Source: Azolla caroliniana (taxonomy: Eukaryota > Plantae > Polypodiophyta). Taken from it: 64,000 nt of DNA. A program made the translations under genes and the position numbers. The stretch spans positions 12,090,001-12,154,000 of the forward strand of contig JBHGNT010000017.1 in NCBI GenBank assembly GCA_043228905.1, read 5' to 3'. Positions within the stretch are counted from its first letter, which is position 1. Each line of letters opens with the position of its first letter. The notes beneath the pieces are model-generated. The model ran no database searches, was not told the origin of the DNA, and worked only from the letters and a program-made list of their open reading frames with translations. This document shows, one piece after another, positions 17,865 to 60,550 of the stretch.

Positions 17865-17895
17865 AAGTGGTATCAGAGCGACGGTAACACAGAAA

Positions 17896-21970: not shown

Positions 21971-21980
21971 AGGGGGAGTT

Positions 21981-26018: not shown

Positions 26019-26030
26019 AAACTCCCCCTT

Positions 26031-33151: not shown

Positions 33152-33404
33152 CTGAGGACTCCGATTCCAGCCTCTTCCCTAGTTATGGTCGTCTTCTGTA
33201 ACCGAAGCCTTTGGGTCTGTTCCGGACTCACGGTCCTTCCGACGAGCTTCTTCGTTTAGCAAACTTGAATTCATACTCTCCAGGTATAAGTTCTTTCCTT
33301 CCAATCCGGCATTTCCTAGAGGGACAACCAATGTCCCCCAACTATCCGAAAGGGACTTGAGCAATAACAATGGGGTGAAAGCATGCGAGTGGAAACAATT
33401 AGCT

Positions 33405-33580
33405 ATGTGCTTGACATAACTAATTACCTATGCAAAAAGCTACCATTGATAAATAGTCATTTTTGGAAAGAGCTACCATTGATAAACTAGCTATGCAAAA
33501 AGCTACCATTGATAAATAGTCATTTTTGGAAAGAGCTACCTTTGATAAACTAGCTATGCAAAAAGCTACCATTGAAAATA
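33405..33580. repeat. Left subterminal repeats (AGCTACCATTGATAAA units; ~60-bp duplication)
   Basis: Directly visible. Confidence 0.7.
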
Positions 33581-33749
33581 GTAGAGAGTTTTAATTATAT
33601 AAATGAGCACCATAAATGTGCAACATAAACCTACAACATAAATTGATATGTGCACAATAAATTATATACCGAATTCCTAGGTCCATTATGTATGATCCTT
33701 TGCCACATCACGTGGGCCATCTTTGGTTGAGTATTCTAGCTTAGATTAC

Positions 33750-34790
33750 TACCATTGTTGCGAAACCCGATTGAGTCCACTCCTCCATTGCCGCCATTCT
33801 ACAATTAGTTACCGACACTGTGTGGTTCAAGTATCATCTGCCATTGTTCGATCTGACAGAGTTCACACCTTCATTACTGCCATTCTGCACTCAATTGCCG
33901 CCACTATTCAGTCCAAGCATCATCTGCCAAGTTCACTCCTCCATTGCCGCCATTGTACACTTAGTTGCCGCTACTGTGAAGGTTGTATATTGCTGCCACT
34001 TTTCGATCTTACGGAGTTAACTCCTCCACTGCCGCCATTCTACTCTCAGTTGCCATCATTGTGCATTCCAAGCATCATCTGCCACTGTTTGATCTGACGG
34101 AGTTCACTCCATTGCCATCATTCTACACTCAATTGCCGCTACAATTCGGTGACCGGTCCTTTATTGCTGCCACTTTTTGATTTGACGGAGTTCACTCATC
34201 CATTGCCATCATTCTACACGTGTTGCCGCTACTGTTCGGTCGTGTATTGCTGCCACTTTTCAATCTGAGGGAGTTCACTCCTTCTCCACTGCCGCCATTG
34301 TACTCTCAGTTGTCGTCATTGTTGGTTCCAAGCATCATCTGCCACTGTTCGATCTGACAGAGTTCACTCCTCCATTGCCATCATTCTACTCTTAGTTGCC
34401 GCTACTGCTCTGTCCTGGATTGCTACGACTTTTCGATTTGACAGAGTTCACTCATCCATTTCCATCATTCTACACTTAGTTGTCGCTACTGTTCGGTGGT
34501 GTATTGTTGCCACTTTTCGATCTGAAGGAGTTCAGTCCTTCTCCACTGTGAAGATTCTACTCTCAGTTGTCGTCACTGTGCGTTCCAAGCATCATCTGTC
34601 ACTGTTTGATCCGACGGAATTCACTCCTCCATTGCCATCATTCTATACCCAGTGGCCGCCATTGTTAGGTCCTGGATTGTCAGAACTGTTCGATCAAACG
34701 GAGTTCACTCCTCCACTACCGTCATTCTACACTTAGTTGCCACCACTATTCGGACCTGGATTATTGCCATTGCTTGGTCTTGGATTTGAA
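33750..34790. repeat. ~82-90-bp tandem repeat array (~12 copies; ~258-bp higher-order unit)
   Basis: Recurring GATCTGACGGAGTTCACTCCTCCA(C/T)TGCC; CCAAGCATCATCTG recurs at ~34068, ~34328 and ~34586. Confidence 0.85.
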
Positions 34791-34933
34791 TAACTATTCT
34801 GTCTGTTGATTATCTTGTGTATTCTTGTGTATATGTGTATTGCGGAATATTTTTGTGTATTGTTGTTGCCCATAGGCATCTTTAATACGTGTCTTTTTTT
34901 TGGGAAAATTAGGGTTTAAACCCGTCAAGCCAA

Positions 34934-37900
34934 ATGGAAGGGGAAGGAGGGTGTTTAGAATTACCCCTCGATGATCATCAGGATAGGGATGATGCTATCA
35001 GGACACAACAAGCGATACGAAAGTATTGGCCAGAAAAAAAAAAGAAAACATCGTGAATTGTTGAAGGATACGAAAGCCACACTCACTAAAGGTAAAGATA
35101 GTATTGGTTGGGATACAGGTCTAAATATCACTGAGAATGGAAGTAATGAGACTACTATCATAGAGAGAAAGGTTTTAGACTATTTCAATGTTCAAACCAA
35201 GCACATCAACAATGAAGACAAGAAGGTAGTACTTTATGGAATATTAAATGATCCATCGATAAAGGAGTTAGTTGATTGTGATGGTCTTAATGCAAACATA
35301 ACATCTATATTAGTAAATAATCTCCGTAATAGTTTCGTATTCATGAGCAGGTCAGAAGATGATCTTGTCTTAAAAAGGTCTAGTCTAATGATGTTACTTA
35401 ATAGTGATGTTGACGATATTAACATCAGTGTGTTATCTAAGGTAATTGGTGTTAGTAGAAAAAGTGTGTACAATACATTGAACCGAATAGTTTCCTCGGG
35501 TGAAGGAACTAATCTACTAAAGCTAACAACAAGATGTAAGCCAATGACACCCATAACATCATAAATCAAGGATATAATCACAATATTTTGGACTAATGAG
35601 AGTAGGGTTTCACCCAATAAGAAGGATTTATGTAGGAAACGTGTTGGAAGGAGTCAATATGAGGAGCATCCCATTCATCTTCTTGATGTACCTCAAATAT
35701 TTACATTTATCTCAACATTTTTTTTGACTTTTGAGCTTACGTAGTTAGCTTATTAGCTACCTCAGAATATGACCATAGCTAACTAGCTACCAGTAATAGC
35801 TAATTAGCTACCATAATAGCTAATTAGCTCACTAAGTATATAAAAAATAACTATTTAGCTACTAGAATAACTAATTAGCTACCATTCATAGCTATTTAAC
35901 TACAACAATAGCTAACTAGCTGGTTATAATAATAGCTAATTAGCAACGAGAATTGTTAATCCCCTACTGGAATAACTATTGTACTAAACTATGGTAGTAG
36001 CTAATTAGCTACCATTTGACTAATTAGCTACTACTTAGCTAATTAGCTACTGTATTAAACTATGCTAGTAGTTAATTAGCTACCACTTAGCTAATTAGCG
36101 ACTCAGCTAAAGTATGGTCGTAGCTAATTCGCCACTATAACTAAAGTATGGTAGTAGCTAATTAGCTACTCAACTAAAGTATGGTGTAGCTAATTAGCTA
36201 CTTAGCTGAAGTATGGTAGTAGCTAATTAGCTACCACTTAACTATTTAACTATTGTACTAAACTATGGTAGTAGCTAATTAGCTAGGTGGTAGCTGATTA
36301 TCTACTCAACTAAAGTATGGTAGTAGATAATTAGCTACCACTTAGCTAATTAGCTACTCAACTGAAGTATGGTAGTAGCTAATTAGCTACCAGTTAGCTA
36401 ACTAGCGACTCAGCTAAAGGATAGTAGTAGCTAATTAGCCACTATAGCTAAAGTATGGTAGTAGCTAATTAGCTACCACCTAACTATTTAGCTATTGTAC
36501 TAAACGATGGTAGTTGCTAATTAGCTAAGTGGTAGCTAATTAGCTACTCAGCTAAAGTATCGTAGTAGCTAATTAGCTACCACTTAGCTAATTAGCGACT
36601 CCGTTAAAGTATGGTACTAGCTAATTAGCCACTATAACTAAAGTATGGTAGTAGCTAATTAGCTAAGTGGTAGCTAATTAGCTATTGTACTAAACTATGG
36701 TAGTCGCTAATTAGCTACCACTTAGCTAATTAGCTATTGTACTAAACTATGGTAGTAGCTAATTAGCTACCATTGAGCTAATTAGCTACTGTATTAAACT
36801 ATGGTAGTAGCTAATTAGCTACTCAACTAAAGTATGGTAGTAGCTAATTAGCTACTTAACTAAAGTATGGTAGTAGCTAATTAGCTATTGTACTAAACTA
36901 TGGTAGTAGCTAATTAGCTACCATACTAAACTATTTAGGTACCAGTTAGCTAATGTATTAAACTATGGTAGTAGCTTAGCTAATTAGCTACTCAACTAAA
37001 GTATGGTAGTAGCTAATTAGCTACCATTTAACTAATTAGCTACTGTACTAAACTATGGTAGTAGCTAATTAGCTACTATACTAAACTATGGTAGTAGCTA
37101 ATTAGCTACCACTTGGCTAATTAGCTACTCAAGTAAAGTATGGTAGTAGCTAATTAGCTACCACTTAGCTAATTAGTTGTTGTACAAACTATGGTAGTAG
37201 CTAATTAGCTACCACTTAGCTATAGAGCTAAATCAGTATGTCCATTTTATTACGCAGGTCAATTTATTTATTAGGTTCTGACGAATGCATCCAAATATCG
37301 AAGTTCAACTACGAACATTCGAGTCTCTTAAGCCACACTTTGTGAGACGCTTGAAGGATCGATACACATGTTGTTGCATTTACCATTTACAAATGGGTTT
37401 TCTCAAGGACTCTGTTAATCTCCTAGGTCACCATAGCGCCTCCCTAACAAATGTAGTTTGCGCTTGTCTGTGCCCAATTTGTCTATCGAGCCCGCATGAG
37501 CACTGTAAATCATCTGAGCATGTTATCTTTTCCATGAGTTGTCTTTTAGATTCAGTATTGTGTCCGATAGAAACTGAGGCCATCTTCCACAATCATAAAT
37601 GTGTCATGGGTTTATGTCAAGATTGTGGCCCTAGTAGATTTAGGTGGTGTCCAAATGAATTGAGTAGTGAAATATTAATCTCTATCAAGTTATTTGAGTC
37701 AGGTGATACCAATTTCGAAGGAAAGGTGTGTAAAAGAAAGGATCTAGTTAGGTAGTCGCTTAAACCAAGGGATTTGGCGTCTCTATTTGTATTATCTCTA
37801 GGAAAGTTCATTAAACATAACTTCATTTATTCATGGCAAGCCCTTTAGTTTAAGACTTGCATATCTGATTTTCCAAATGATGTAGTAGTTTCAGTAGTAG

Positions 37901-40127
37901 ATTTCGCAGAGAATTATACTTTCAAGCAGCAAAATGAAATTCAATCTACCGGGAAATGCACGGTTAGTAAACAGTGCGTAATGTAGAATATATTAGATGC
38001 TTGGGGAAATGTTGTATCTACCGGGACATTCTACATCGAAGGTATTTTTTATGCAAGACTAGATGATTACAATTATGTGTATAGGCTATTAGAAGACAAA
38101 CCAGTGGCGTACATTTACTCTCATTTGGTCAGGTGCATCAATGTCCCAATGTCGCAATACAATAGTTGCGCAAGTTTATACACAGTTAGTGCTAATGTGT
38201 ATGAATGTATTTACAATAGTATGCCATGGAATTTGTAGCTACAAGTAGCAATTACCAGTTTTCTTGTAAAACAAACAAAGCACATGTATTGCAAATAAAC
38301 AGTTTAATGGACCTCTTTGGAAGTTTTTAATAATATATACAGTCTACTTTTTGTGCTTCTTTCTCACAAAATTGTGTGTCATTTTTATATACAGTCTTCT
38401 TTCTGATATATAGTTTAATAATATCATTTAGGGTTCTTCTTTCTAAGATATAGATTTACTCAAGTGAACCATGTACAAGTTAAAATAGTTTGCATAATTT
38501 TAAGAAAAAGCACTATCATGAAATCAACAATTTAATTACACAATAGATAAGTTACTCAAAACAAGCAATATAATTCTTCATTGATTAAGTGGTCCGACAG
38601 AAACTGAGGCCATCTTCCACAATCATAAATGTGTCATGGGTTTATGTCAAGATTGTGGCCCTAGTAGATTTAGGTGGTGTCCAAATTAATTGAGTAATGA
38701 AATATTAATCTTTGTCAAGTTATTTGAGTCAGTGGACACCAATTTCGAAGGAAAGGTGTGTAAAAGAAAGGATCTAGTTAGGAAGTCGCTTAAACCAAGG
38801 GATTTGGCGTCTCTATTTGTAGTATCTTTAGGAAAGTTCATTGAACACAACTTCATTTATTCATGGCACGCCCATCAGTTTAAGACTTGCATATCTGATT
38901 TTCCAAATGATGTAGTAGTCTCAGTAGTAGATTTCGCAGAGAATTATACTTTCAAGCAGCAAAATGAAATTCAATCTATGCATTGGTGTTCAGCGCAGGT
39001 AACCATTTTTGTGCACATAACATATTTTCGAGTTTCGGGTGATGTTAAAAAAGTAATTCATTTTTTTATTTCTGATGATAAGAAGCTTGATACCTTGTTT
39101 GTCCAACATTGTTTTAACTTACATTGGCAATGGTTATTAGCTAAACGTTTGGAGCTTACTCAACATTGGGTTTGGTCTGATGGAGATGCGTCAAAATTCA
39201 AGGCTAGACGTCCATTTTATTTTGTGGGGAGGTATCCTGCTATAATAGGTTTGGAGATGAGATGGAATTTTTTTGGGTCTGGCCATGGTAAAGGTGAACA
39301 GGATGGTGCAGGTGCTGTTATAAAGTGGGCACTTACCCATGAACAACTAAAGGCAAATGGTGTGTAGATGAATTGTGCAGCACATGTAGTTGAATTTTTA
39401 AGAGCTAATATGTCAACGAGTGCAACTGGTGTTTATTCATCGCAGGTCCGAGATATCAAACGTGAATTTTGGGAACTGAAGATAGATGAAGTAAATAGGG
39501 AGTAGACCTGGGAGTGCCAAGGAATTTCCTAATTGCGATCTCTCCATGTTGTTCGCGGCTATTCTAGGTTGGATGGTTATTGTATTGCGGTTAGAGAATT
39601 AACTTGCTTTTGCTTCCATTGTGTGCAGGGAAATTGGAGGTATTGTTTAAACAAAGCATATATTCAGAATTGGGAGTATCATACATTGAACGATAAGGAT
39701 GTAGTTGATGGAGAAACAAAAAAGAATGCTGACTTCACATATCAAGGACGTGGAGATACTCTGAGTGATGTCTTAAATGTTGGGGATAATTTTGTTGTAA
39801 ATGTAGAAGAAGGCAATTTAGAGGGTGTTGATTTCTATATATTGAAGTGTATGGTTAGTAAATAGTGTGCAACACAGAATATATTTGATGCTTGGGGAAA
39901 TGTTGTATCTACCGGGACATTCTACATCGAAGGTATTTTTTATGCAAGACTAGATGATTAGGACTATGTGTAGGCTATTAGAAGACAAACTAGTGGCGTA
40001 CATGTACTCTCATTTGGTCAGGTGCATCAATGTCCCAATGTCGCAATACAATAGCTACTCAGGTTTATACACAGTTAGTGCTAATGTGTATGAATGTATA
40101 TACAACAGTATGCCATGGAATTTGTAG
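34934..40127 (+). pseudogene. Sola-type DDD transposase, intron-containing, disrupted and partially duplicated
   Basis: Exon 1 ~34934-35696 (FWTNESRVSPNKKD...HPIHLL); acceptor at 37257; Cys-rich region; VVDFAENY..EIQSMHW, WSDG..KFK and FFGSGHGKGEQDGAG; C-terminal CFCFHC. Several stops, one A-run frameshift, and an apparent GT>AT donor. Confidence 0.8.
35740..37229. repeat. TAGCTAATTAGCTA palindromic minisatellite array 1 (in the transposase intron)
   Basis: Dozens of copies of the 14-bp palindrome in ~19-bp and ~31-bp units. Confidence 0.95.
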
Positions 40128-40515
40128 CTACAAGTAGCAATTACCAGTTTTCTTGTAAAACAAACAAAGCACATGTTACTATTGCAAATAAAAAGTTTAA
40201 TGGACCTGTTTGGGAGTTTGTTTTTGATATATAGTCTACTTTTTGTGCTTCTTTCTCAACAAAATTGTGTGTCATTTTTATATACAGTCTTCTTTCTGAT
40301 ATATAGTTTAATAATATCGTTTAGGGTTTTTCTTTCTTAGATACAAATTTATTCAAGTGAACCATGTAAAAGTTAAAATAGTTTGCATAAGTTGAAGAAA
40401 AAGCACTATCATGAACTCAACAATCCTGAACATACTCTTAAAATTACACAGTAGATAAGTTACTCAAAACAAGAAATTTAATTCTTCATTGATTAAGTGG
40501 TAGCAAATTACATAT

Positions 40516-41556
40516 TTATAACATCCCATTGCCAATGTCTTGAAATCACCTATAAACAACTAAGCTCTTGCTGGTCAGTGGAACTTCTCTACATATATGA
40601 TCTGCATACTGAGCTCGGTATGGAGTCCACAACCATGTAGCTAGTTGGCAGCTCAATGTTTTCACCAAATAGTGTTCAGGCATTTCATCGGGTAGAATGA
40701 GACATCATCTACGAACGTTGAAGTAATGTCGGAAGTGTTCTGTATCTAGAATCAACGTATTGTCGGCATTATAATTTGGCCAAGTGTCCCAAAAATCAGA
40801 AAGTCTTTTGAATCTTGCAACATCATTCTGCTCACAATTTTCTCATGTCCACTTACCCTTGAAATGTTGTCGCCAGTTCGGGAAGAATCTTTCTATACAC
40901 TTCCACACATCTTTACATGGTTTTTCGCTCCAAATAAACAAATCAAAGTATTGCACAGTCCACTCCAGAAATTGATTTGCGTCCCTCCTTGGTGTCATAT
41001 ATCGCGCACTCATCAGGACTTTATCAGGCTCCAAGATCAATGCTCTTCTTTTGACTTCTAATGGTTTAGGTTTCCATTCCTGTAATTGAGCCTGTGTTAC
41101 ACAAATTATTGGTAGCACACGATCAATTTCAATCAACGTAGGTTCATTCGGCACAATTGGTGTCCTTTTCCTCTTCAAACCCCTAGTCGACTGTGTTGGG
41201 CCTGGCTTCACATTCTAGTGCTCTTGTGTTGTCGACTTAGTCATTGGCTCGGTGCATGTAGATACTGATCTGGTCGATATCAGCCCACTGGTATCACATG
41301 CTGCATCTACCTGTAAAATCAGATCATCTATACAACATGCTTGATCAACTTGCGTAACCAGATCATTTGTGTCAGTTGCTACATCTACTTTCAAGATGTG
41401 GCCCTCTAAACACGCAACAACATCAACAGTTTCCACACTACCATCAGCCTTAGGAGCAATAGATTCAAACCCTTTAGACTCTACAACATCAGAAAACACC
41501 AACATAGTCACACTCACAAAGTAATTAACAGTCTCACAAAACAACATAATGAACAT
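40516..41556 (-). pseudogene. FCP1/NIF (HAD-like CTD-phosphatase fold) domain gene carried by the transposon
   Basis: One frame with four in-frame stops: RALILEPDKVL...RRDANQFLEW..YFDLFIWS...W..ENC...KRLSDFW...YNADNTLILD. The pattern resembles NIF domains; recognised by eye only. Confidence 0.55.
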
Positions 41557-42271
41557 GAAATATTTTCCATCATAGAAACATTTACATAATTATCTTGGAG
41601 AAACATCATAGAGTTCCATTACATAATGTGGATCAAGCAACAACCAATCTGAGGTTTTACTTCTCCAAATAGATCATAGTAAAACTTCATAGAACCCTAG
41701 GAAAATCGCTAACAATCATATCCCACTAATAAGTATTTCGCTCCAATTCAAGAGCCCCTTGACCGAGTAATTGGTCTTGTCCCCGATCGTGACCCCTTAT
41801 TTAGCCTTTTTCTAGCCGGTTGCCCATTTAGCCTTGCTTCTTTGACCCATTACGCAAGTGTGTCCTCCTCCGACAACCTTTCCATCACCTCAGCAACGGC
41901 TAGCAGGTCAGCCGCATCTTGCACTAGGTTTTCCAGTACAGTGGGATCTGTTTGGACATTATCAGTAGTTGGGCTCAGTGGGGTGGAATCAAGGTTTTGG
42001 GATTCGAGGAAATGTTGCATCAAGTGTTCAAAAACACTATTGTGAACCTCAGATTTACATGTTGTTTCCAATATTTCATGGCTTTTCACATCGTTGCCTA
42101 ATTCATTACCATCTTCCAAAAGAATAGGGTGGAGCTAATCAGAAGGAGATAAGATAACAGGACTCTTAAATTTAACCACATTGGCAACTATCTCCTCATC
42201 AGTTGTAGCGTCATCAACACCAAACAGCTCATGCGCCCTCCTTAATCCACAAGATGCTACAACAACATGGT

Positions 42272-43077
42272 TGCTAATTAGCTACATCTTAGCTAACTAG
42301 CTATTCTTCTAGACTATGGCTGTAGCTAATTAGCTACCACTAAGCTAATTAACTACTTCGCTTAGGTATGGTACTAGCTAATTAGCTACTCAACTAAAGT
42401 AGGGTTTAGGGTTTAGCTAATTAGCCACTATAACTAAAGTGTGGCAGTAGCTAATTAGCTACTGTACTAAACTATGGTAGTAGATAATTAGCTAACTGGT
42501 AGCTAATTAGCTACTCAACTAAAGTATGGTAGTCGCTAATTAGCTACCACTTAGCTAATTAGCTACTCAGCTAAGGTATGGTAGTCGCTAATTAGCTACC
42601 ACTTAGCTCATTAGCTACTATACAAAAGTATGGTACTAGCTAATTAGCCACTATAACTAAAGTATGGTAGTAGCTAATTAGCTCCCACTTAGCTAATTAG
42701 CTACTGTACTAAACAATGGTAGTACCTAATTAGCTAAGTGGTAGCTAATTAGCTACTCAGCTAATGTATGGTAGTAGCTAATGTATGGTAGTAGCTAATT
42801 ACCTACCACTTACATAATTAGCTATTGTATTAAACTATGGTAGTAGCTAATTAGCTAAGTGGAGGCTATTTAGCTACTCAACTAACGTATGCTAGTAGCT
42901 AATTAGCTACCACTTAGCTCATTAGCTACTGTACTAAACTATGGTAGTAGCTAATTAGTTACTGTACTAAACTATAGTAGTTAATTAGCTACCATTTAGC
43001 TAATTAGCTATTGTATTAAACTATGGTAGTAGCTTATTAGCTAGTCAACTAACGTATGGTAGTAGTTAAATAGCTAC
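42272..43077. repeat. TAGCTAATTAGCTA array 2, left part
   Basis: Same units as array 1; cut by the Gypsy insertion at 43078. Confidence 0.95.
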
Positions 43078-43547
43078 TGTTGTCCACTGGAATAGTAACC
43101 AACGGACAGAAGCGTAGAAATATTATAATATAGTAAAAGCATAAGAAACACATGTAATGGTTCACGCGGGAAGGGTGAACAGCTAAAAGACCCTATGTAT
43201 ATAAAGGGTAAAAATCCTCTATAAGAGGTAGCGTGTAATTTTGGTGCACAGAGCACTTTTGTAATAGAATACTATCTTCTCTGAGTTCTGTGCATATCTG
43301 TGGTTTTTTTATCTACCGTGTTCTTTGTTCTCTGTTGTGTACTGTTAATTGTAAGGGTGTAGGCATAAGTGCGGATACTAGTGCACTACCCAAGGAGTTC
43401 GGTTGTAGCCGTCTCCCTTATACGCTGCTAGGATACGAGGAGTATCCCATTACGTATTACGATGCAACGGTACCATTCCTTGCAACATAGTCACCTTGAA
43501 GTCTACGTCCAAGAACTGACCGTAGACAGTGTTCCTAATCGGTAACA
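43078..43547 (+). repeat. Gypsy 5' LTR (470 bp)
   Basis: TGTT...AACA; matches the split 3' LTR. Confidence 0.9.
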
Positions 43548-43601
43548 CATTTGGCACGCTTGGTGATCTGTGTTTTCTTGTAGACGAACAACGACGAATG
43601 G

Positions 43602-46600: not shown

Positions 46601-47671
46601 CATTACGCAAGCGATGTTACGGCCTGGAAAATTTGGTAAGCAGGACTTTCGTGGCCGACTACGCAAAAGGATGCGTATGAATATTGTAAAGAGTGCGATT
46701 TATGCCAACGGATTGGCCAACCCACGGAAGTTGCGAGAATGCCACATCAACCAGTGTTGCCGTTGGATCCTTTCCGAAAGTGGGGGCTCGATTTTGTGGG
46801 ACCCTTTACCCCAGCGGCTGCCAGAACCAGCAATAAGTATATCCTAGTGGCTACGGATTACTACACCAAGTGGGTAGAAGCGAAACCACTACGCGAAAAT
46901 ACCACGACAGTCACAACGAAATTCCTTTACAAACATATCTGGTGTCATTTTGGCTGCCCTATTGAGCTCATTAGTGACCAAGGGAGTCACTTTCTGAATA
47001 TGGTCATTAGCGAACCAACCCAACACTATGCCGTGGTCCACAAAAAGAGTACGTCGTATTACCCATAGGCAAATGGCTTGGCCATATCCACAAACAAAAC
47101 ATTACAAACTATCCTCAAAAAGATAGTCAATGAGAATAGAACAAATTGGGATACCAAATTGCACAACGCATTACGGGCATATCGATCCAGCTATAAGACC
47201 AGCATACAATCCACGCCTTTCAGGTTAGCATTCGAATTCCAGGTACTAAGTCTGCGGATTCAAGTACGAGACCGGCTGCTAGAGGACAAATCTAAACGAA
47301 TACGGCTACAACAACTGTTTGAAGTAGGGGAAACACGATTACGCTGTATGGCCATATTGGAATAGGAACAACGGCAGCGCAAAGCATTCGTGGACCGACA
47401 TCGGCATGCACATGAAAAGGAGTTTACGGTCGAGAAAGCGGTATTAGTTTTTCAAACACACATGGGGCAAATGCCAAGAAAATTAAGATTCCGCTGGACA
47501 GGCCTGTACTGGATAGTTGGAGCGGAAAACGACACATTTCAACTCGACACCTTGGCCAGAGAAGTGCTACGACAAAAGGCGAATGGGTTTCGCCTAAAAC
47601 CTTACCTAGGACCTACGCCACCTAACCCGTTCCCCGTCGGACAGGACAAAGCCAGAAGATCCGCGGAGTAA
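43602..47671 (+). pseudogene. Gypsy gag-pol (partial gag and protease, RT, RNase H, integrase), disrupted
   Basis: [46 protein letters not shown] and RFRWTG motifs; many stops and frameshifts. Confidence 0.85.
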
Positions 47672-48045
47672 TTATAGAGACCTACTTGTACTATAGTGTA
47701 AACATGATATTGTATGTAACCGTTACAGAGAAATAAATAAATAAAAGAAAAGAGAAGATAGTGATGCTATTAAAAGGACTTCACGCATGCACAAACTTCT
47801 AGAACAAGAACACGTGGCACCACGGTGGCTCATAGACCAATGAACCCTAGGCCACAAAAAGAAGAAAATAGAAGGTTTTCTGCACAGTACATAAACCAAT
47901 CATCTAACCCTCATCGCTCTCCTCACTCACCTTCCTCTCCATCATACCACAGAGCTCACGTTCGCCATAGCCATCATACCTCACCCTCTACCCAGTAGTC
48001 TCACCCACCTACTATGCAGATCCCTATTTATGCCGCCTTGCGTAG

Positions 48046-50302
48046 ATGGCTCGTCGAAAAGCGCCTGGATACATCAAAGTTGCCGAGGCACCTGCTCACC
48101 CTGAAGCCCTGGACATTGTAAGGAAACTCAATATAGACACGGTCACCAACACATCCATTCGGAAGAAGCTTGACCTGTCATCACTTGGAGAAAGACATTT
48201 CAACATCCCTCCTGCGGAAACCTTGTAGAGATATTTCGAGGCATATTCAACGTCCTCTAAGGCATACAGAACGAAGGAAATCCCCGACCCCTTCTTTCGT
48301 GAAATAGCCAAGTTCTCGTTGGAGGTTGGATGCGTAGATGTAAATGCCTATGGGATGCCAAAGCAGAAGGCAGGCATCATCATAGATACCTTCGAAAGGC
48401 GCATGGTCGATTGGGGAGTCATTACGAGACCAACGTTACGGGAACATCTGCACGCGTATAAAGGCGGAAAAAAGCTAAGGCCAATCATACAACAGTATCT
48501 GACGATACTATTCTCACCCCGAGGTCTAGCCGCACCACAACCCAGCAAACCCACGCCGCCACCACGTTCCGCGACCCGGAGGTTAGCAAAGTTGGCCACC
48601 ACGGAATGGGAGGATGAACCCCAATCGGCCCAACCCAACATGCAGACAACACAGGAAGAACGACCGGAGCACAAAGAGGAAGCTCCGCAGGAGCAGGAAG
48701 CCGAGCAACGCCAGGAAAGCCCGAGGCCGAAACAACAGAGGCTAGAGAGGAACGATGGGTAAGGATTAGTTAAAGACACACTCGCGGCCACAGAGATGAC
48801 TGTGGTGGTTGACAGTTCCATGGCTATGGAGCCCAACACCACTTTTGAAATAATCTGAGAACCACGGCCGATCATTACGGCCTAGTCATAGAGGGGGAAA
48901 GGCGTATTTATGGTGAAAAGCGAGGTCGTGAAGTATCCAGACATTCCGGACATAGCCCCTAGGGTAGGCAGACAACGGAATGTCGGTATACGTCAAATGG
49001 GAATTGAACTACCCTCATTAAACGCAGCCCTCGTCGAGGTTCATAGGGAAATGGCTAAGGTCAGTATTGGCGCCAAAGATATGGCGATTGAAAACAAAAA
49101 TGTCTGGAAAACGGTTAAACAGACCCAAGTTGAGCTACAAAAGGCCAACGAACGCATCGCAGAGTTGGAACGAAAAGAAACTAGGACGCAACAGGAATCT
49201 CAACCAACAAACAACACTACCGAAGCCCAGTCCCTAAGAGAAGAGGTTGAAGCCCAGATCCCCATCGCCTCAAAAGCAAAGAGGGCCGTACAGTTGGCGG
49301 AATCCAAGATTGACCTCCTCCACTCCAAACTCTACCAATCCTCCGATGGAGAAAGGACATCCGGGCCAAAGGCCGAAAGGTAGTGAAGGCCCTCGAAGAG
49401 AAACTCGAAGCGGAGGCAGCAGCGCATACCCGCACAAAAGAAGAAAACACCAAACTATAGGAGGAAGCGCAAAAATCGGAAACAACGATCACAGGACTCC
49501 GGGCGTTATTGGAAAAGAAGAAAGCATGGTACGAAGAGCAGCTCGTACGGGAACATGAGGTGAGGCATCAGGTCGAAATCCTCCTGAACGATGAAATGGG
49601 AAAGTTGGAGGAATTACACTCGAAGGAATCTCAGTTATGTGCAAGAATGAAGAGCAATTATGAGGAAACGGTTGCGGTCAGTAAGCAAGAAATCGAAAAC
49701 CTCAAGAAAACCCTGGAAGAAGCGCGTAACCACTGCCAAGTAATAACCGACAACGTGCGCATACTTCTTCAAACAAATCGGGAGAGGTTTAGGGCGCAAT
49801 TAACACCGGTGCTAGACAAAGGCTGGATGGCGTGGGCTACACAAGCGGCGGAGTTGCATACTTACCGGGCGAACTAGGAGAACCGAAGGAAAGACGAGTG
49901 ACGTTTCTACAAACTCAATGAGAAAAGCATTGCGGGAGTACGCGAGGACCTAGCACAGGATTATCCCACGCTAGCAGACCAACACTACGAGGAACTCGCG
50001 TAGCTACTGGACGATTTCGGCAAAAGTGAGGAGGATATGTTTCACAAATCATGCAAGCCGGCAACACGCGACCAAGTGTGGAACCCATCGCGATACTAGT
50101 AAGTGATACTGCCGAACAAGAGGAATCTCAACCCACGTCACCGGAAATAACAACTACGATAGGCAACACGGGAAAACAAGCGAATCCCATCGCGATAACG
50201 GAAAGTGAGACCACCGAACGGGAGGAACCTCAACCCCATTCACCGAAGCGGACGACTACGGTTGGCAACACGGAGGAAGTTACGGACAGGACAGAGCCTT
50301 AA
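48046..50302 (+). pseudogene. Additional 3' ORF of the Gypsy element (coiled-coil rich, unknown function)
   Basis: Collinear ORF fragments 48046-48762, 48910-49383, 49509-49877 and 50051-50302 between integrase and the 3' LTR. Confidence 0.6.
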
Positions 50303-50695
50303 CCTACCTAGAGCCCACAAACGGATGAGCCAACCACAGTAGAACGGGATGAGCCAACAGAACCTGGACCACCCACACAGGGAGACGTTGACATCATGGA
50401 AAGCCCCACCAAGCAAGTACAAGACATGGAACCATGCCACGACACACCTACGGACACTACGCCGTCCCCGAACCAGGACATCGGGGCGGAACCAAACATC
50501 CGGGCCATTTGGGAGGAAGAATAAAGGGGTGGGTCCGACGTGCCATGGCACTATCCTACAGGCGTTCCAAGTGTTGTCCTCCAGAATAGTAACCAATGGC
50601 CAGAAGCGCAGAAATATTATAATATAGTAAAACCATAAGAAACGTATGTAACGGTTCACGCGGGAAGCGTGAACGGCTAAAAGACCCTGTGTATA

Positions 50696-53600
50696 TGAAA
50701 AGAATTGCGTACGGAAGCAATACAGGAAACCGAACAATAGAAAACGCAGGTTTAATGGAAAGCTTAGGTTTGCACAGTACGCACGGGAGAGACAGAGAGA
50801 GGGAGTGAAACACAAGAACTTAATTCAAAAATAATACTCAATTTGTACATAGGATGTGCTCAGTGAGCACTTTTATACAAGCCCTGACAGTCGGGCTGAC
50901 ACAAGTATTGACAATACTTGACTGCTCATAAATGAGCTTTGACTCTTACTCCCAAAACTATTCCTTACAAGGAATATCACTCTAACGGCCTTTCAGTTTA
51001 TGCACCGGTACGACCTTCCTACGCACCGGTCTGGCCTAACCGATCCAGTCCTCGGCTTGCTCATCCGATCTAGCCGATTTTGAGCTTGTCTCTTAACACT
51101 CCCCCTCAAGCTCAGCTTGAGGTTCCGCCTGCTCCGTCGGATCTACGCTACGGCTTCTCCTGGATCCACGCCTCGGCCTGTTTGACTCCGCGCGTTTTGA
51201 CCCTTCCGGTCGGCTTGTCTGCACCCACGGCCCTTCACAACTCCCTTGCTGTCGCGGTGTTGGCGCTTCTCCTGCTGCCTTCTTTTCCGCTTGGCCCTCG
51301 GTTGATTCAGTGTATCTGAATCAAACATCCGAACCGACCCGGCTACCTCCGATCGGTTTTCGCTCTCGTCCGAGTTGGCTGTCTCAACTCGTCTTCGGTC
51401 TTCTTGCCCTTGACGACGTCATATCCCCCATGCTTGGTTGGCTTTGGCTCTTTCTTTCGGCTGCTCCCCTTATGTCCGCTTTCGGACTCTTCAGCGGATC
51501 CGCCCTCAGCTTCTTAAGCCGATCCGAAGTCGAATTCGTCATCCTTTCCTACTCCCTTCCATAGTCATCTGGGACATCTCTCCCCCTCAAGTTCGGCACG
51601 TCGAGGTGACGCAACCCAAGCGCACCCGAGAATTGCCGCAACTTGTCCAGACCAAGAGGCGTGGTGAAGATGTCTACGGTCTGCCGATACGTCGGAACAT
51701 ACTGAAGTTCGACTTCACCAAAAAGGACACCCTCACGGACAAAATTGTAGTGCACCTCAATGTGCTTGGTCCGTGCATGGAAGACTGGGTTCTTCGCGAG
51801 CTGGATGCTGCTGAGGTTGTCGCAGTAGATCGTCGTCGGATCGGACACCTCTACCTGCAGATCCTTAAGTAGCCGCTTCAACCATATGGCTTCACATGTC
51901 GCGACAGCCGCTCCTCTATACTCGGCTTCAGTGCTCGACAGTGCAATTGTCAGCTGCTTCTTGCTACTCCACCCTACCGCGACACTCCCAAGAGAGAACG
52001 CGTATCCGGACGTGGATCGGCGATCGGCGGCGTTGCCAGCCCAATCAACATCGGTGTAGCCGACCAACTACGGCTAGACCGGTCCGAAATAGCAGTCCCC
52101 GGTCCTTAGTGCCGCTTACGTACCGCAGTACGCTTTGTGCACACTGAAGGTGCTCCTCGGTAGGTCGCGCCATAAACTGACTGATCACCCCGACTGGATA
52201 ACTGAGATCGGGTCGAGTGATTGTCAAGTAAATAAGGCTTCCGACAATTTGTCGGAACCTCGTCGGTTCGCACACCTTTCTGGAATTGGGGCGAAGCTTG
52301 ACGGTTTTATCAAGAGGAGTCGAGATGGACTTATAGTCTGGCATCCCGAATTTGAAGAGCATATTCAGCACGTAATGACGTTGGCTGATCAGTATGCCTT
52401 CGGGAGTGCGGATCACTTCGATCCTTCATGTCGAATGATGCCGCAAGCTGGAGCTTCATGCGGTCGATTTCACCTAGTTCGGCGCTGGTGATGACCAAGT
52501 CATCAACATATAGTAAAATACTAACCGGCCCGAGTCGACCTTTCCGGATGAACAGGGAAGAGTCCGATTTTGACGTTGCAAAGCCCATCCAACACAGTTG
52601 CTGCGTGATCTTCGCGTTCTAGGCACGCGGGGCTTGCTTCAGTCCGTAAAGAGACTTCTTCAATCGGCACACTGCTGAAGTGTTCGTTCCAGAGTGAAAT
52701 TTGGGGGGCTATACCATGTACACCTATTCCTCAAGCTCACCTTGCAGAAACGCATTCTTTACATCCATCTGATGTTAGTGCCACCCCTTTGCTGCAGCTA
52801 CCGCGAGCAAAACACGGACGGTCGTCATCTTCACGACCGGTGCAAACGTCTCATCGTAGTCGATGCCATGTTTCTGCGCGTAGCCTTTTGCCACTAACCG
52901 GGCCTTGTATCGGTTGACCGAGCCGTCAGTGTTGTACTTGACCTTGTACGCCCACCTACATCCGATCGGCTTCACACCCTTTGGTGCGTCAACCAGGTCC
53001 CAGGTCTCGTTTTCTGCCAATGCGTGCATCTCTTCCTCCATCGCGGCGCACCAGTTCGCGTCCTTAACCACTTCTGCGTAGCTCTCCAGCTCATGCACTT
53101 CTGCTACACAGGTCATGTACGCATAATGATGCGCCATGTACTCGTTGTATCTGAACCGTACAACTGGGTTCTTCTGGCGGGTAGATCGGCTTAATCGGTC
53201 TTTAGCCGATGTCGAGGTCTTCTCGACCGACGCGGACTTCGCTCTTGAAGACCCGTAACCGCTTCCCTCAGAGTCGGACTCGCATCGGTCTGACTCGTTC
53301 CTATTCGTGCCGGAATCCGACACCTTCTTCTTCCCTTTCTCTTTGTTCGTAAGCCGTCTCCTCGGCTTCCTGTTCTGGGAATGCACGGCCAAGTCTCCAC
53401 TACTCGCCGGCTCTTCATCGGACTGGTTGAACCGACTCCGTCATCCATTCGGTCCACGTAACCAAAATGAAATCGGACTCTCTTCGCGGTTCCCGATTTC
53501 CGGCTCATCCGGAGGCATCTTAGTCTCATTGACCTCATCGTCAGAACCCGGATTGGAGGTGAGGTCCGGAGTCGGGGCCAAGTACTATGACACAGACTCG

Positions 53601-56311
53601 TCAAACACAACGTCGCGGATCACGCGCGCTTGTTTGGTGCGCGGGTTATAACACTTATAACCCTTCTGCTCGTCCGAATAACCGACCAAGTTACATTTCT
53701 CGGCCTTTGCGTCTAGCTTCCTCCATTTCTCCTTCGGCACATGCACATATGCAATGCTACCAAAAACTCATAAGTGTTGCAAGTTCGGCTTCGTTCCGAA
53801 ATATAGCTCGTGTGCCGACACTTTTTCTCCGATCCGATTCTGGATGTATACCGCGGTTCTTACTGCCTCGGCCCAGTAGAACTTGGGCAAGCTCTTCTCT
53901 TCCAGCATTGCCCATGCCGCTTCCACAACCGACCGATTTTTCCTCTCGGCCACGCTGTTTTGCTCCGGCGTGTATCTACAACTGAATTCCCGCCGAATTC
54001 CCATCTGTTGTAAATAACCATTGAATTGACTAGAGAAATATTCTTTTCTGCCATCCGACCGCAGGCACTTGATCTTTCTTCCTGTTTCCATTTCCACGAA
54101 CCCTTTCAGGTCCTGGAAACAGTCCAAGACTTCGCTCTTCCTCTCAATGAGGTAGATCCACGTGTGCCGTGTGTAGTCGTCGATGAAGGAGATGAAATAT
54201 TGGCTCCCACCAAGACTAACGTTTTGTGCTGGCCCCCACACATCGGAGTGTATCAAGTTGAGCTTGTTCTGGCTCCGGTTATGCTCGTTCAGGAAGGGAA
54301 GTCGGTGTTACTTCCCAAGCTGGCAGGCTTCACAAATTTGTGCCTTCCGGCCACTAAATTTGGGCAATCCGAACAACACCTGTTTCGATTGCAGGTCCTG
54401 AAGCCGCTGGTAGTTGACGTGCCCTATCCGCTTGTGCCACAAGTCGATGTCCGACTCGACTTTTTGTCCCTTCGCGAACATTGCGGTGCCACCGTCACTA
54501 GAGTCGAGGATAAACATCCTCCCATCTCTCCGCCCTTGCGCAATAACATGGCCTTCTTCCTCAATGAATCACCCGAGATGTGTAAACCGAACCTACATCC
54601 CTTGGTCGACGATCTGCCCGACCGACACTAGGTTCTTTGTGATTGTCGGGACGTGTAACACGTTCAGAAGTTTCCCGTTCACCGACATTTGCAATCGGAT
54701 GCGGAGTGTCTTCTCCGGTTGCGACTACTCCTGGTTGTGTCGGTTTCTCAAGGTATGAGAACCACTCCTCGTGGCACGTCATGTGGTTTGACGCGCCGGA
54801 GTCGATGTACCACACCTCCTCCGACTTCGGGGTGATCTTCTTCATTGAGTTTGCTTTGTGCCTTCTCACAAAGATTGACCCTTTTCCGGCTTTTCCGGAT
54901 CCTTCGGCGTAGTGTGATCGTTGTCGGTTTCCTTTGTCGGTATGTTTGGACCCGGTCCTCTCCGACTCGGTGCGCTTTTTCCAGCACTCGCTCTCCCTAT
55001 GGCCTTTCTTGCCACAGTACAAGCAATCTACAATGGATTTCCCTTGCCAGTTCTCGTCGCCCCGACTCCCCCTGTTTCCGGAGGGTCCGGAATTGCTGTC
55101 TGCATCACTTCGGTGCCTTCTTCCTTGATCCCGTCGTCCGCCTCCATTGTGTACCGACTCGCCTCGTCTGCCACAACTACGAGACCTATCTCCCTCCGTG
55201 TACAACATCTTGTTGTCGGTGTGCGTGCTCATTGACGCACCCGCGTGGTTCTCCTCTACCAGGAGCATCGACTTTAAGTCGAAAAAGGACGACGTATTCT
55301 CCCGGGTACACAGAGCAGTTCGGAACGCCCTGAACTTCGACGCCAAACCCTCGAGATAGACCTCGACCATCTCGCTTTCCTCGATGTTCACATCGATGGA
55401 AGCTTAGGAGTCGCATATGTCCTTAATCCTCGAGGTATAGTCCGCCACCGACAAATCGCGTTGCCGTAGGTTGCTCAACTCCTAGTGGTGCTCGCAGCGA
55501 AAATCTTCTTCAGATTTTCCCACGCACCCTTCGCTGTTTTTGCATCCCGAACGTAGCTTAATAGTTGTTCACCCACACAAGACGTGAAGCAGTATAGCAC
55601 TCTGATCACCGAGTGTTCCCATGCCGGGAAGTCATTGTGTGTCGAATCGGGTGTTGTGTCATTTGCACGATCGGCATAGCTCCAGTAACCATGTCCGAGC
55701 AGGTACTCGTGCATCCTGTAAGACCAAGATGCGTAGTTGTTTCTGTCGAGCTTCTCCGTTAGAAGCGAGCTAGCCATTCCTCTATCCATCGCTTTTCTTA
55801 TTCTTCTTCGTTGGTTTTTCCTTCAAGCAAAGTCGGCTACAGAGGTTCTCAACCCTCACGCTCTGATACCGTGAAAAGAATTGAGTGCGGAAGCAATCTA
55901 GGAAACCGAACAACAAAAAACGCAGGTGTCATGGAAAGCTTAGATTTGCACAGTACGCACGGGAGAGAGAGGGAGAGAGAGTGAAACACAAGAACTTAAT
56001 TCAAAAATAATACTCAATCTGTACATAGGATGTGCTCAGTGAGCACTTTTATACAAGCCCTGACAGTCGGGCTGACACAAGTACTAACAGTACTTGACTA
56101 CTCATAAATGAGCTTTGACTCTTACTCCCAAAACTATTCCTTACGAGGAATATCTCTCTAACGGCCTTTCTATTTACACACCAATACGGTCTTCCTACGC
56201 ACCGGTCTGCGTACCCATTTACGAACCCGATTTACGCACCGGTCCGGCCTAACCGATCCAGTTCTCGGCTTCCTCAACTGATCCGGCCAATGTTGAGCTT
56301 GTCTCTTAATA
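50696..56311 (-). mobile_element. Copia F (same lineage as Copia A) inserted in the Gypsy 3' LTR
   Basis: LTRs 50696-51098 and 55872-56311; TSD GTATA (50691-50695 / 56312-56316); PBS at 55861-55871; PPT at 51099; disrupted gag-pol at 51549-55789 (CLYCGKKGHRESEC, WYIDSGAS, IHSDVWGP, LLYVDDL). Confidence 0.92.
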
Positions 56312-56662
56312 GTATATAAAGGGCAGAAATCCTCTGTAAGAGGTAGCGTGTAATTTTGGTGCACAGAGCGCTTTCGTAATAGAATACTATCTTCTTTGAG
56401 TTCTGTGCATATCTGTGGTTTTTTTATCTATTGTGTTCTTTGTTTTCTGTTGCGTATTGTTAATCGTAAGGGTGTAGGCGTAAGTGCGGATACTAGTGCA
56501 CTACCCAAGGAGTTCGGTTGTAGCCGTCTCCCTTATACGTTGCTAGGATACGAGGAGTATCCCATTACGTATTACGGTGCAACGGTACCATTCCTTGCAA
56601 CATAGTCACCTTGAAGTCTACGTCGAAGGACTGATCGTTGACAATGTTCCTAATCAGTAACA

Positions 56663-57150
56663 ACTACCACTTAACTAATTAGCTACTCAACTGAAGTATG
56701 GTTGTAACTAATTAGCTACTATACAAAACTATGATAGTAGCTAATTAGCTAAGTGGTAGCTAATTAGCTACTCAGCTAAAGTATGGTAGTAGTTAATTAG
56801 CTACCACTTAGCTAATTAGCTACTGTACAAAACTATGGTAGTAGCTAATTAGCTATTGAGCAAAAGTATTGTAGTAGCTAATTAGCTACCACTTAACTAA
56901 TTAGTTACTCAACTAAACTATGGTAGTAGCTAATTAGCTACTTAGCTACTCAACTAAACTATGGTAGAAGCTAAGTAGCTACCACTTAGCTAATTAGCTA
57001 CTTGACTAAACTATGATAGTAGCTAATTGGCTACCACTTAGCTAATTAGCTACTCCGCTAAAGTATGGTAGTAGCGAACTTGCTACCACTTAGCTAATTA
57101 ACTACATGTTAGGTAATTAGCTACTATACTACAACCATAATAGCTAAATA
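56663..57150. repeat. TAGCTAATTAGCTA array 2, right part
   Basis: Continuation of 42272-43077. Confidence 0.93.
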
Positions 57151-58708
57151 GTTTCCACACTTTATATAGCTTACCTAATTAGCAAACATGGAACTGATTA
57201 GGTACACTATGGTCACAAGCAGCAATTTTACCTGTGTGTTTTCTCCACTCATCTGGGAGATCTGTATTACAATCCCCCAAACAGAATGCAGCAATGCGAT
57301 AGGCATATTGAAAACAAACGATATGGTATGTGTGTTGGCATGGTTGTAGGTGAACCAACAGAGTAGTAGATTTGTCCTCTACATGTAATCCACAAGCGAT
57401 GCAACATGCTTGAATAGTCAATATATTGTTTCCTAGTTCTCCTTCATTTGGTAAGGGAGCAAGAATGTTTAGGTTCAATTCTTGTCTGCTCCTTACCATC
57501 CCCTCTGCAAAATGTAGCTGCTTCTTAAGGCAGCTAACTACCTGTTCTTGACGGGAGTATTGTTCCTTCAACGCAGCTGAGAAATTTACCGATTAATTAT
57601 TCCTTAATGAGGAAGATACAACTACAAGAAACAAGAATCATTAACTTACTTGTAGCTTTTCGGAATTGTAATCAGCGACAATATTTACACCTAGAAGGTC
57701 AAGGTTCATTGAAAGAACCTGGATCTCTGTTTGTAGTTGATTTTTCCATTGGGGATCCAGCAACCCCTCAATTTCAAGTTCATGTTGAGCAACCTGTTCT
57801 AGATAATGCCTCAATAGCACATTTTCATGTACAAGTTATTTATAACATATTACATACTAGCAAAACAATAGGTACCTGAATCTTATTTCTGATTGTTGTA
57901 ACTGCCAAAGTGACGTTGCTCTCCATCATAGCATCCAATGTTGCTTTCTCTAAATCAATCTTAAAAAACTCCAATGTCTCACACGCTTCAGGGACATTTT
58001 CTAGCATATAGCTAATCAATGTCTCACATGTTCAACACTCTAGGATAGGGAGGAACGAGCCACCTGAAATAGAAAATCAGTAATAAGAATTGGTGCAAAT
58101 TTACAACACTTTGAGATAGTAATTTGAAATTTGTAATCTGTACTTTTTAACATGTATCAGAAATCAACCCTAATCAGAATTTGTCATGAGAATTGGTGCA
58201 AAATTACAACAGATTGCGATAGTGATAAGAAATTTGTAACCAAAAACTTGTAATCTGAAATATGTAATCAAAAACCCTAAACCACTTAGGGGAAACACAA
58301 ACCCTAATCATCACTAAAGGCAGAAATCAACCGTACTACGAAATTGTGTCAATTAGAAACACACCTGCTGCTACACCCCGATCTTCGAGACATCCTTGTT
58401 CGGGACTCCAACGACTTCGCCGTATTCGATTTTTGGGAAAGATGAACAGGCACCAAAGTTACAAACAGTTATCATAAAGGGAAAAAAAAGTTTTTTAATA
58501 TGTAACTGATACATACTTGGACGAGGATCAACTTGCTCGTGTGTTCTAGCTCTGAAGGTGCAATGTCGATCTCAAAGTTTTTGTGCTTGCTGCGGGGGCT
58601 TCGTTTGCGTTCATGCTCAGAGTACTCCATCTGTTTGGAGTTTGAACTCGAAATCAGGATTATCAAGAATTTGATGGCATTCAAGTCGAGCTTAGATGAT
58701 GGCCCTAC

Positions 58709-59554
58709 TCCCCATGTTCCACTCTGTCAGAAACCAAAGTTCAAATATTAGAGTATTCTCATAAATTAAATGACATGTATTTAACTAATAAAACATAAAA
58801 TTTCGTAAACCATCCTTATGATTTTCCCACAAAAAACTAGCTAGACAAATAGCTAATTAGCTGTGGCCATTTTAGAAGCTAATTAGCTATAATAGTGTTT
58901 CCACTCGCATGCTTTTACCGTTATCCCATGTCTATTTTCATACATGAAAGCTCAAATGAGTGAGATCTCTATCATGCATCACATGTATTTTATGCATGTC
59001 TTGTACCCTCACGTGCATTATATGCATGGGGGCACCTATAAAAAGAGGGGAATCAAGTAAGGGAGGAAAGGAAGAGAAAGTAAGAAATGAAATCATTTAT
59101 TAACCAAAGAAGCTAACTCATTTGGGGAAGTGTCTTGTCTCTCGGAGTTGAAGTCAATGGTTCAAATCAATCGTCGGTAAAGAAATGTTTCATCTTGATA
59201 TGAAGCATTGTAAAGTTGGTAAAATCTTGTTTTCTTAATATAAATCATATTCATATCACTATTGCTTATTAATCATACATTGTCTCTATCTTTTATCTAT
59301 ATTCATCTCTCTCTCTCTCATATTACTTTTAACTCTTCTTCTTCCCCATGTTCCACTATGTTAGAAACCAAAGTTCAAATATTTGAGTACTCTCAGAAAT
59401 TAAATGACATGTATTTAACTAATAAAACATAAAATTTCGTAAACCATCCTTATGATTTTCCCACAAAAAACTAGCTAAACAAATAGCTAATTAGCTGTGG
59501 CCATTTTAGTAGCTAATTAGCTATAATAGTGTTTCCACTCGCATGATTTTACCC
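58709..59554. repeat. Duplicated 212-bp right end of the Sola2-like element (58709-58920 and 59343-59554)
   Basis: Both copies end in a TIR; the inner ends TTACCG and the outer ends TTACCC followed by the TSD. Confidence 0.88.
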
Positions 59555-60032
59555 AATGCTAGTACCTTGTCGGTTAGTGATACTTTGAGCGAGGTAGTTT
59601 GGTTTATCAACCCTTGAAGGGGTTCATATGCTCTCCCATGCTAGCGACATCTTGATACTGAAGCCTCACTATCTTTTGGAATATCGAGACCTGATTTACG
59701 ACGTTATTGTTCTCCAACATCGTGCCAATATTCTCCCAGAGCGCATTGGCCTTCTGCTCTTCATTAAAATTATTGTATAGGCTCATGTCGAGAAAGCACC
59801 AAATGTATGACATCGTCTTCATGTACATTACTTCCTAGATCGCGACATCGTTCTTGTCCGGTCTTTTGTCCCCAAACTGTACCAACAACCAGAGATCTTT
59901 TACGACTAACATGTCCCTCATCTTCAACTTTGACACTGGGTAGTTGGAGCCGGTGAGCTTTAACATGCTACTGAATGAATCTTCCATCTTCTTTCTTTGT
60001 TTGAAGTTTAAAACTTTACTCTAATACCAGTT

Positions 60033-60545: not shown

Positions 60546-60550
60546 ACAAA

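Follow-up and report, generated by a model that had tools for sequence, protein, structure and literature searches.

A decayed Sola2-type transposon in Azolla caroliniana with a facing RING accessory gene and family-specific repeat arrays

We analysed a 64,000-nucleotide window of the Azolla caroliniana genome (assembly GCA_043228905.1, contig JBHGNT010000017.1, positions 12,090,001 to 12,154,000 of the forward strand), in which a DNA transposon occupies positions 33373-59554. The element is a decayed copy of a Sola2-type transposon with a native length of about 11.4 kb, and its plus-strand transposase is faced from the minus strand by a predicted RING accessory gene whose tail resembles a dead phosphatase. 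Short motifs that differ from family to family are arrayed in the introns of both genes. With a confidence just short of even, we propose that the accessory protein acts at the arrays of its own element and thereby counters host silencing.

The 26,182-bp span is bounded by 25-bp terminal inverted repeats (33373-33397 and 59530-59554) that match at 23 of 25 positions, starts with GGG, ends with CCC and is flanked by AATG on each side. It lies in the gag of a minus-strand Copia element, whose long terminal repeats (LTRs) at 25465-26020 and 60033-60546 bracket it, and the gag frame runs through a single AATG when the two separately translated flanks are joined. An earlier sequence-only reading of the window had reported these repeats, this duplication and the rejoined gag, together with three repeat systems (a 63-bp repeat in 2.5 copies, an 84-86-bp unit in about 10-12 copies, and TAGCTAATTAGCTA arrays), all of which we recover. 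GRG...CYC termini are a trait of Sola2, with which the GGG...CCC termini of the window agree, and GGG is likewise present at five ends among related loci. The target preference of Sola2 is AT-rich AWWT (PMC3627910), which AATG fits at three of four positions; that comparison concerns one site, as the target-duplication result rests on one complete insertion. The 26.2-kb span is so long because it includes a nested 13.6-kb retrotransposon stack: by our arithmetic, subtracting 13,585 bp for that stack and 1,030 and 634 bp for two duplications, and adding back about 490 bp of deleted sequence, gives a native length of about 11.4 kb; a high-copy family of 11-12 kb is supported. The target-site duplications and repeat blocks at the ends are:

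33369..33372, plus strand: left target-site duplication, AATG
33373..33397, plus strand: left terminal inverted repeat with GGGTGAAAGCA core; the same core stands at the left ends of L002, L007 and L020
33428..33582, plus strand: 63-bp subterminal repeat, 2.5 copies
33774..34769, plus strand: tandem array of 84-86-bp units (about 10-12 copies), upstream of the transposase
59555..59558, plus strand: right target-site duplication, AATG

The DDD transposase placed on the plus strand by that reading is present there in two exons:

34922..35696, plus strand: transposase exon 1, helix-turn-helix; frameshift, one stop, decayed donor; start approximate
35697..37257, plus strand: transposase intron with TAGCTAATTAGCTA array, a 14-mer repeated 26 times
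37258..40127, plus strand: transposase exon 2, with Cys-rich region, Sola2-type DDD core (DFAENY / WSDG / HGKG..DG) and plant-type C-terminal domain; several stops

Compared by eye, the three acidic motifs of the window and of intact relatives fit the Sola2 alignment. The first catalytic motif of the window, DFAENYTFKQQNEIQSMHW...QVTIFVH, agrees with Sola2 DF(A/S)ENY...Q(D/N)E(V/I)QS.HW and with the published Sola2 profile consensus D-f-a-e-n-y...q-d-e-v-q-s-k-h-w...q-a-t-l-h (PMC5751038 supplement S1). The Sola1 profile begins FDLQKVL..P..FYYKRK, and the motif FDLQKVL.LP...FYYKRK was not found in the window transposase. The predicted enzyme is thus Sola2-type, and the earlier assignment to this group is supported by the core match to the published profile and alignment and by the mismatch to Sola1. 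One open transposase piece used as query retrieved 67 longer relatives; those with names come from Ceratodon (40%), Cryptomeria (44%) and two molluscs (34%). A tree of 45 rows was built from 27 representative loci of 80 plus 17 proteins and rooted on unlabelled animal relatives rather than on Repbase Sola1/2/3 entries; in it, all loci and both named plant proteins fall within a single branch of 38 rows, supported at 100/99. Plant members share a conserved transposase C-terminal domain (window 39760-40127; C terminus of P0001). A Tudor/BAH-like identity for this C terminus was not accepted, its sole match being Spindlin-1 at an E value of 0.34.

On the minus strand, the accessory gene is read as follows from its 5' end:

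58517..58700, minus strand: probable first accessory exon, the least certain call; third-position bias absent
57876..58065, minus strand: accessory exon whose counterpart in relatives carries a conserved N-terminal domain; deletion of about 490 bp in the window
57650..57800, minus strand: accessory exon, predicted coiled-coil; boundaries approximate
57232..57577, minus strand: RING-H2 exon (C-x2-C...C-x-H-x2-H-x2-C...C-x3-C), no stop; open frame 57182-57592
42257..57231, minus strand: predicted accessory intron, one TAGCTAATTAGCTA array (42262-43077 and 56663-57225) interrupted by the nested stack
41716..42256, minus strand: accessory linker exon, acidic with basic tail; 3' boundary approximate
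40516..41480, minus strand: last accessory exon, acidic linker and FCP1/NIF-like domain, predicted pseudophosphatase; four in-frame stops; acceptor approximate

The sequence-only reading had described two converging non-transposase genes. Both frames are present on the minus strand (the FCP1/NIF-like open frame at 40516-41499), but they are most likely exons of a single convergent spliced gene, because the splice phases agree and fern gene models fuse the domains in one chain. Both the donor that closes the RING exon (CAG|GT at 57232) and the acceptor that opens the linker exon (TAG|CA at 42256) are in phase 1; other copies part from the window sequence at 57229 (a loose end in run X2), just within the predicted intron. 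A NIF-domain profile search gave 150 matches, bringing the set to 153 proteins with earlier ones, among which five are RING-NIF, two N-terminal domain-RING-NIF and one N-terminal domain-NIF (reversed control, 0). Seven of these eight fused proteins were looked up, and all are hypothetical proteins (gene models) of Adiantum nelumboides. P0225, which lies outside the profile training sets, has the N-terminal domain, RING and NIF together, and matches the N-terminal exon of L011 at 34% identity (E 8e-21); P0080 is 79% identical to the NIF domain adjoining the transposase of L007. Two of the three larger accessory exons show third-position excess. That this family has a separate gene for each of the RING and FCP1-like parts we consider very unlikely: the unspliced RING frame of the window does end at a stop, and the database entries nearest the window are single-exon NIF frames, but the matching splice phase, the divergence of copies directly after the donor and eight plus five fern models with fused domains argue for one gene. 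The first accessory intron holds a cluster of telomere-like AAACCCTAA words in both the window element and L011 (window 58080-58340; L011:1973-2315).

The accessory protein is a predicted RING ubiquitin ligase. The window RING has a complete pattern of eight Cys/His zinc ligands, by which, together with similarity to fern RING-NIF proteins (pairwise E 6e-6), it was identified; it gave no Pfam RING match at E ≤ 1, and the RING domains of relatives match zf-RING_2 with E values of 1.6e-5 to 1e-3 that fall short of the curated threshold. The domain preceding it has no homologue among longer proteins, and its best fold match reaches Z 5.0 on a poor model. A plant mobile domain was considered for this N-terminal region and dropped, with no Pfam match at E ≤ 5 and Atlas matches of at most 0.90 with low feature counts.

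The FCP1-like domain is probably a captured, inactive phosphatase fold. By itself the window piece scores weakly against Pfam NIF (E 0.035); the structural model of the domain is confident (predicted local distance difference test, pLDDT, 92) with fold matches to TIM50, UBLCP1, CTDNEP1, SCP1 and Fcp1; it shares the fold and the Pfam NIF family with these FCP1/SCP-type HAD phosphatases and differs in its altered motif I, its fusion to RING and its location in a transposon. In FCP1/SCP phosphatases, a DxDx(T/V) motif I carries the nucleophile Asp, as in the DLDET seen among the fold-match results. Among 37 distinct NIF proteins of the window clade, motif I is E-x-D (ELDKVL-like), with Glu at the nucleophile position, in 28 of 28 that cover it; motif IV is DT in 29 of 29, and the conserved Lys and first motif-IV Asp are retained. 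Such substitutions in motif I abolish HAD activity, and we predict a pseudophosphatase because the nucleophile Asp is replaced in all covering relatives. Other transposon-side NIF domains are mostly DxNG, none of those shown has DxDxT, and among host proteins the closest belong to the plant DxNG family rather than to Fcp1/Scp. In light of both observations, a working RNA polymerase II C-terminal domain (CTD) phosphatase is not supported; the earlier reading had called the product CTD-phosphatase-like. That the domain is instead an active phosphatase with altered chemistry, acting on RNA polymerase II or another host protein, seems to us highly improbable: the confident fold, the conserved Lys and the first motif-IV Asp speak for it, and the ELDKVL-like motif I in 28 of 28 window-clade proteins, mostly DxNG in others, speaks against it. 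A quick, unrooted tree of 89 NIF domains puts all three locus-derived domains and all eight fused ones on the same side (54 rows, SH-like support 98), and the conserved Sphagnum gene P0079 falls on the opposite side. A viral origin was rejected, as viral contigs held no transposase or NIF relatives and viral NIF folds, at 12-17% identity, are no closer than cellular ones. P0155, of 912 aa, combines a DLNG-type NIF domain with a weak Ulp1 protease match (E 0.0085) and is possibly cargo of another transposon.

Linkage to the transposase was assessed in 80 related loci forming 43 groups, most of them too short for judgement. NIF faces the transposase convergently in L006 and L007. RING lies downstream on the opposite strand in six of the eight groups with at least 6 kb of downstream sequence (L018, L020, L022, L064, L066 and L075), with the N-terminal domain beyond it in five of these six; four of the six belonged to the RING training set, and L020 and L022 were found independently. 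The linked loci represent both main branches of the plant clade (100/99). The terminal core recurs at the left ends of L002, L007 and L020 and at the right ends of L011 and L018, which places the accessory gene inside the ends in L011 and L018; RING lies interior to the right terminal repeat in L018, and NIF accompanies the left repeat in L007. The core pattern also matched once inside the L007 transposase. The ratio of non-synonymous to synonymous substitution rates (dN/dS), taken from unsaturated pairs with those of infinite dS or dS >1.5 excluded, stood at 0.21 and 0.35 in the transposase; in the accessory 5' exons it was 0.44 (pN/pS 0.54, bootstrap 0.38-0.79). The accessory domains stay linked to the transposase across loci, which supports the earlier view that the cargo belongs to the element. 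The NIF exon is optional to the family; in L002, L003 and L012 the accessory gene ends in an acidic exon whose tail is basic. In run X1, contig depth when summed was mostly 5,000-28,000 over transposase, NIF, linker and RING exons, with single variants at 15-25; because summed depth is no copy number, we read it solely as high copy, with cargo of the same order. One derivative, L011:1-2950, is an internal deletion in which the transposase core is fused to 5' accessory exons and the right end, beside a Copia LTR end.

In six families, the same transposase intron is filled with a short repeated motif particular to each family:

Window and L001: TAGCTAAT
L002: ACCATTAA
L003: GGTAATTA
L006: TAGCATA
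L007: AGGTGAAA
L008: AGTACCAA

In five of the six, the accessory intron or the 3' spacer again holds the family's own motif, with counts in this second region against expectation of 343 versus 24.7 in the window, 56 versus 1.5 in L002, 9 versus 1.2 in L003, 11 versus 0.8 in L006 and 25 versus 1.4 in L008. No enrichment was seen in the spacers of L007 and the window or in the accessory-side stretch of L003. Three cross-family matches were found, namely window-L003 (both have CTAATTA), L003-L008 and L002-L006, and in long distant loci the arrays are weaker or otherwise placed. A similar layout is known from Arabidopsis VANDAL elements, whose accessory protein VANC targets tandem repeats that lie in introns and vary by family (PMC5735166). 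The two systems share an accessory gene and intronic tandem motif arrays that differ among related families; they differ in that VANDAL belongs to the Mutator superfamily and VANC has DUF1985/DUF287, unrelated to the RING protein (PMC5735166), and the full-length accessory models P0080, P0093, P0094 and P0225 gave no Pfam match to either domain. For VANC, motif binding and demethylation have been shown (PMC5735166).

We infer a role against silencing, to which the family-specific arrays lend circumstantial support. The accessory RING protein would be recruited to the element's own arrays, through either its N-terminal domain or the helix-turn-helix of the transposase, and would ubiquitinate a host factor of chromatin or transcription, and the phosphatase fold, an optional module, would bind phospho-peptides; the element's copies would thereby stay expressed despite host silencing. 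A more specific version strikes us as rather unlikely, namely that a land-plant Sola2 clade has its own anti-silencing system, VANC-like from unrelated parts, in which a new DNA-binding domain brings a transposon-encoded ubiquitin ligase to family-specific intronic arrays, where it marks or degrades a silencing factor, and in some families a dead CTD-phosphatase fold grips phosphorylated RNA polymerase II.

Several observations weigh against an accessory protein that counters silencing at its own arrays. Nothing points to protection from methylation, since CpG is depleted in intact relatives (observed/expected 0.44-0.58, versus 0.74-1.11 in the retrotransposons of the window) and the decay of the window copy is mostly at CG/CHG sites. 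For the N-terminal domain, Pfam, Atlas and fold searches gave no match and the model is poor (pLDDT 47), which makes DNA binding by it a guess; the case for its homology from one main branch to the other is weak (hhalign 47%, E 2e-4). The fused fern proteins are predicted gene models, examined apart from their genomic surroundings; run X17, guessed to be RNA, covered little; one accessory exon has no third-position bias; and one short intron (61/72) is better kept than its flanking exons. L041 and L077, each with at least 6 kb downstream, gave no accessory match, NIF is absent from L002, L003, L012 and all long distant loci, and the RING of L037 (L037:4594-4917), an early-branching member, shares the transposase strand, unlike all others. 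A de novo search of 15-16 long loci for pairs of ends with target duplication gave no convincing pair, and no related locus proved complete. The family motif also occurs within 150 bp of a terminal repeat, 18 times at the right end of the window element, 5 at the left end of L007 and 5 at the right end of L011 (counts taken without a shuffle control), and with the helix-turn-helix this suggests that the transposase may be the array binder.

This last point counts in favour of a different account, which we find doubtful. Here the transposase would be what binds the arrays, and the RING protein, by attaching to the transposase or ubiquitinating it, would serve as a cofactor of transposition or a feedback regulator, with no host-silencing target. 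MURB of MuDR and the second gene of Harbinger would be comparable. The L007 intron motif resembles the terminal-repeat core, as this account would have it, and a transposase by itself can activate cognate copies (bioRxiv 10.64898/2026.08.24.746577). However, most motifs are intronic, in both genes, and kilobases away from the ends, like VANC targets (PMC5735166), and an optional phosphatase-fold module is better explained by a host partner. It is also conceivable, if improbable, that the arrays arose by neutral slippage and were homogenised family by family, and that the accessory gene either has long persisted as a passenger or serves the host rather than the element. CpG depletion without a sign of protection would fit this, as would modest constraint (dN/dS 0.44) and a variable gene, which has lost NIF in close relatives and is absent in two of eight long loci; but one motif recurs in separate regions of an element yet differs between families, the arrangement of the genes, their orientation and their domains have been retained among transposases of about 30% identity, and many NIF frames are intact (37 distinct proteins).

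Compared with what is described for Sola, which has terminal inverted repeats and a 4-bp target duplication (PMC10741241), the element combines familiar and unfamiliar traits. With the Sola2 group it shares the core DFAENY...Q.EIQS.HW...Q.T, SD...HD, SDG...Q.K and W.FF..GHGK...DG (PMC5751038; PMC3627910 additional file 10), an upstream Cys/His cluster, short terminal repeats and a 4-bp target duplication; unlike that group, the present plant clade, which sits on a long branch, has an extra C-terminal domain, an array-filled intron, a RING accessory gene, and AATG rather than AWWT. The notion that Sola elements carry a transposase only is contradicted by two precedents. Sola2-Fanzor elements (DFa-1/2/3 and PPa-1/4/5; examples of 11,949 and 12,887 bp) are Sola2 transposons too, of 12-13 kb and with a second, multi-exon gene, but they are amoebozoan and their cargo is a TnpB-like Fanzor with no RING or phosphatase fold, and arrays are unmentioned in the part of that paper available (PMC3627910). 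The Ectocarpus Sola1-1_Ec32 is similarly giant (21.5 kb), with nested insertions and an opposite-strand accessory gene proposed to act on its own sequence; it differs as a Sola1 of a brown alga with ParB-like and DNA methyltransferase cargo (PMC12477816). Sola is also recorded in Physcomitrella (PMC9033089 Table 1), and some Sola elements exceed 15 kb (PMC10741241); the Physcomitrella Sola1 is again a large Sola in a non-flowering plant (PMC9033089, PMC10741241), with a Sola1 profile unlike the present transposase; compared by name and description, the two may overlap.

Size and cargo-carrying are thus already known for Sola, and the RING-pseudophosphatase gene with family-specific arrays appears undescribed. 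We found no report of RING or phosphatase cargo in Sola in the open literature, a search beyond which lie Repbase and the founding Sola paper, either of which could contain the family; a whole-word term search of the main text of an Arabidopsis transposon-product atlas found no mention of phosphatase, RING or E3 ligase (PMC13547354). Understood transposon-encoded regulators are few, and several protein-motif pairs are already known. If our reading is right, a conserved RING accessory gene with family motif arrays would be an independent instance of the VANC design, and would name targeted ubiquitination as a mechanism along with a new protein domain. A set of 'hypothetical' RING-NIF models in a fern genome are likely transposon cargo rather than host phosphatases.

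The present copy carries further duplications and insertions:

37562..38593, plus strand: tandem duplication particular to this copy, covering exon 2 and its 3' end; internal deletion
43078..56662, plus strand: Ty3/Gypsy-like LTR element, a later insertion outside the element proper, with a Copia (50696-56309) in its 3' LTR
58709..58920, plus strand: inner right-end copy, which runs on into the interior of the element, like that of L011; terminal base altered
58921..59342, no strand assigned: about 420 bp of another abundant repeat, trapped between the two right ends
59343..59554, plus strand: outer right-end copy, including the terminal inverted repeat (59530-59554) used in the present insertion

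The nested stack measures 13,585 bp, cuts one repeat array in two and has Ty3/Gypsy-like LTRs that are 91% alike. The internal transposase duplication is 1,030 bp and the right-end duplication 634 bp; about 490 bp present in relatives is deleted between 58031 and 58036. Because the inner right end joins the interior, the element appears to have transposed via the outer end, carrying flanking DNA with it. The two right-end copies (58709-59554) are 211 bp each, 96% alike, and flank about 420 bp of foreign repeat. The decay noted earlier is confirmed: the copy is dead, with a frameshift, a decayed splice donor and stops in the transposase and four stops in the NIF exon. Relative to intact relative L001, C>T/G>A changes affect 26 of 124 CHG, 10 of 64 CG and 26 of 426 CHH sites, as expected of methylation-driven decay. 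In the coding DNA of intact relatives (compared over window 38600-41478, L001 and L006), CpG is depleted and CHG is not, in contrast to the retrotransposons nearby, which resembles a gene-body-type methylation history.

Elsewhere in the window, 7859-8575 (minus strand) is a host sugar-transporter exon (Pfam Sugar_tr, E 8e-54), the sole host-gene piece among the frames scanned, and 17277-22624 is a young Copia with long open frames and LTRs 99.6% alike.

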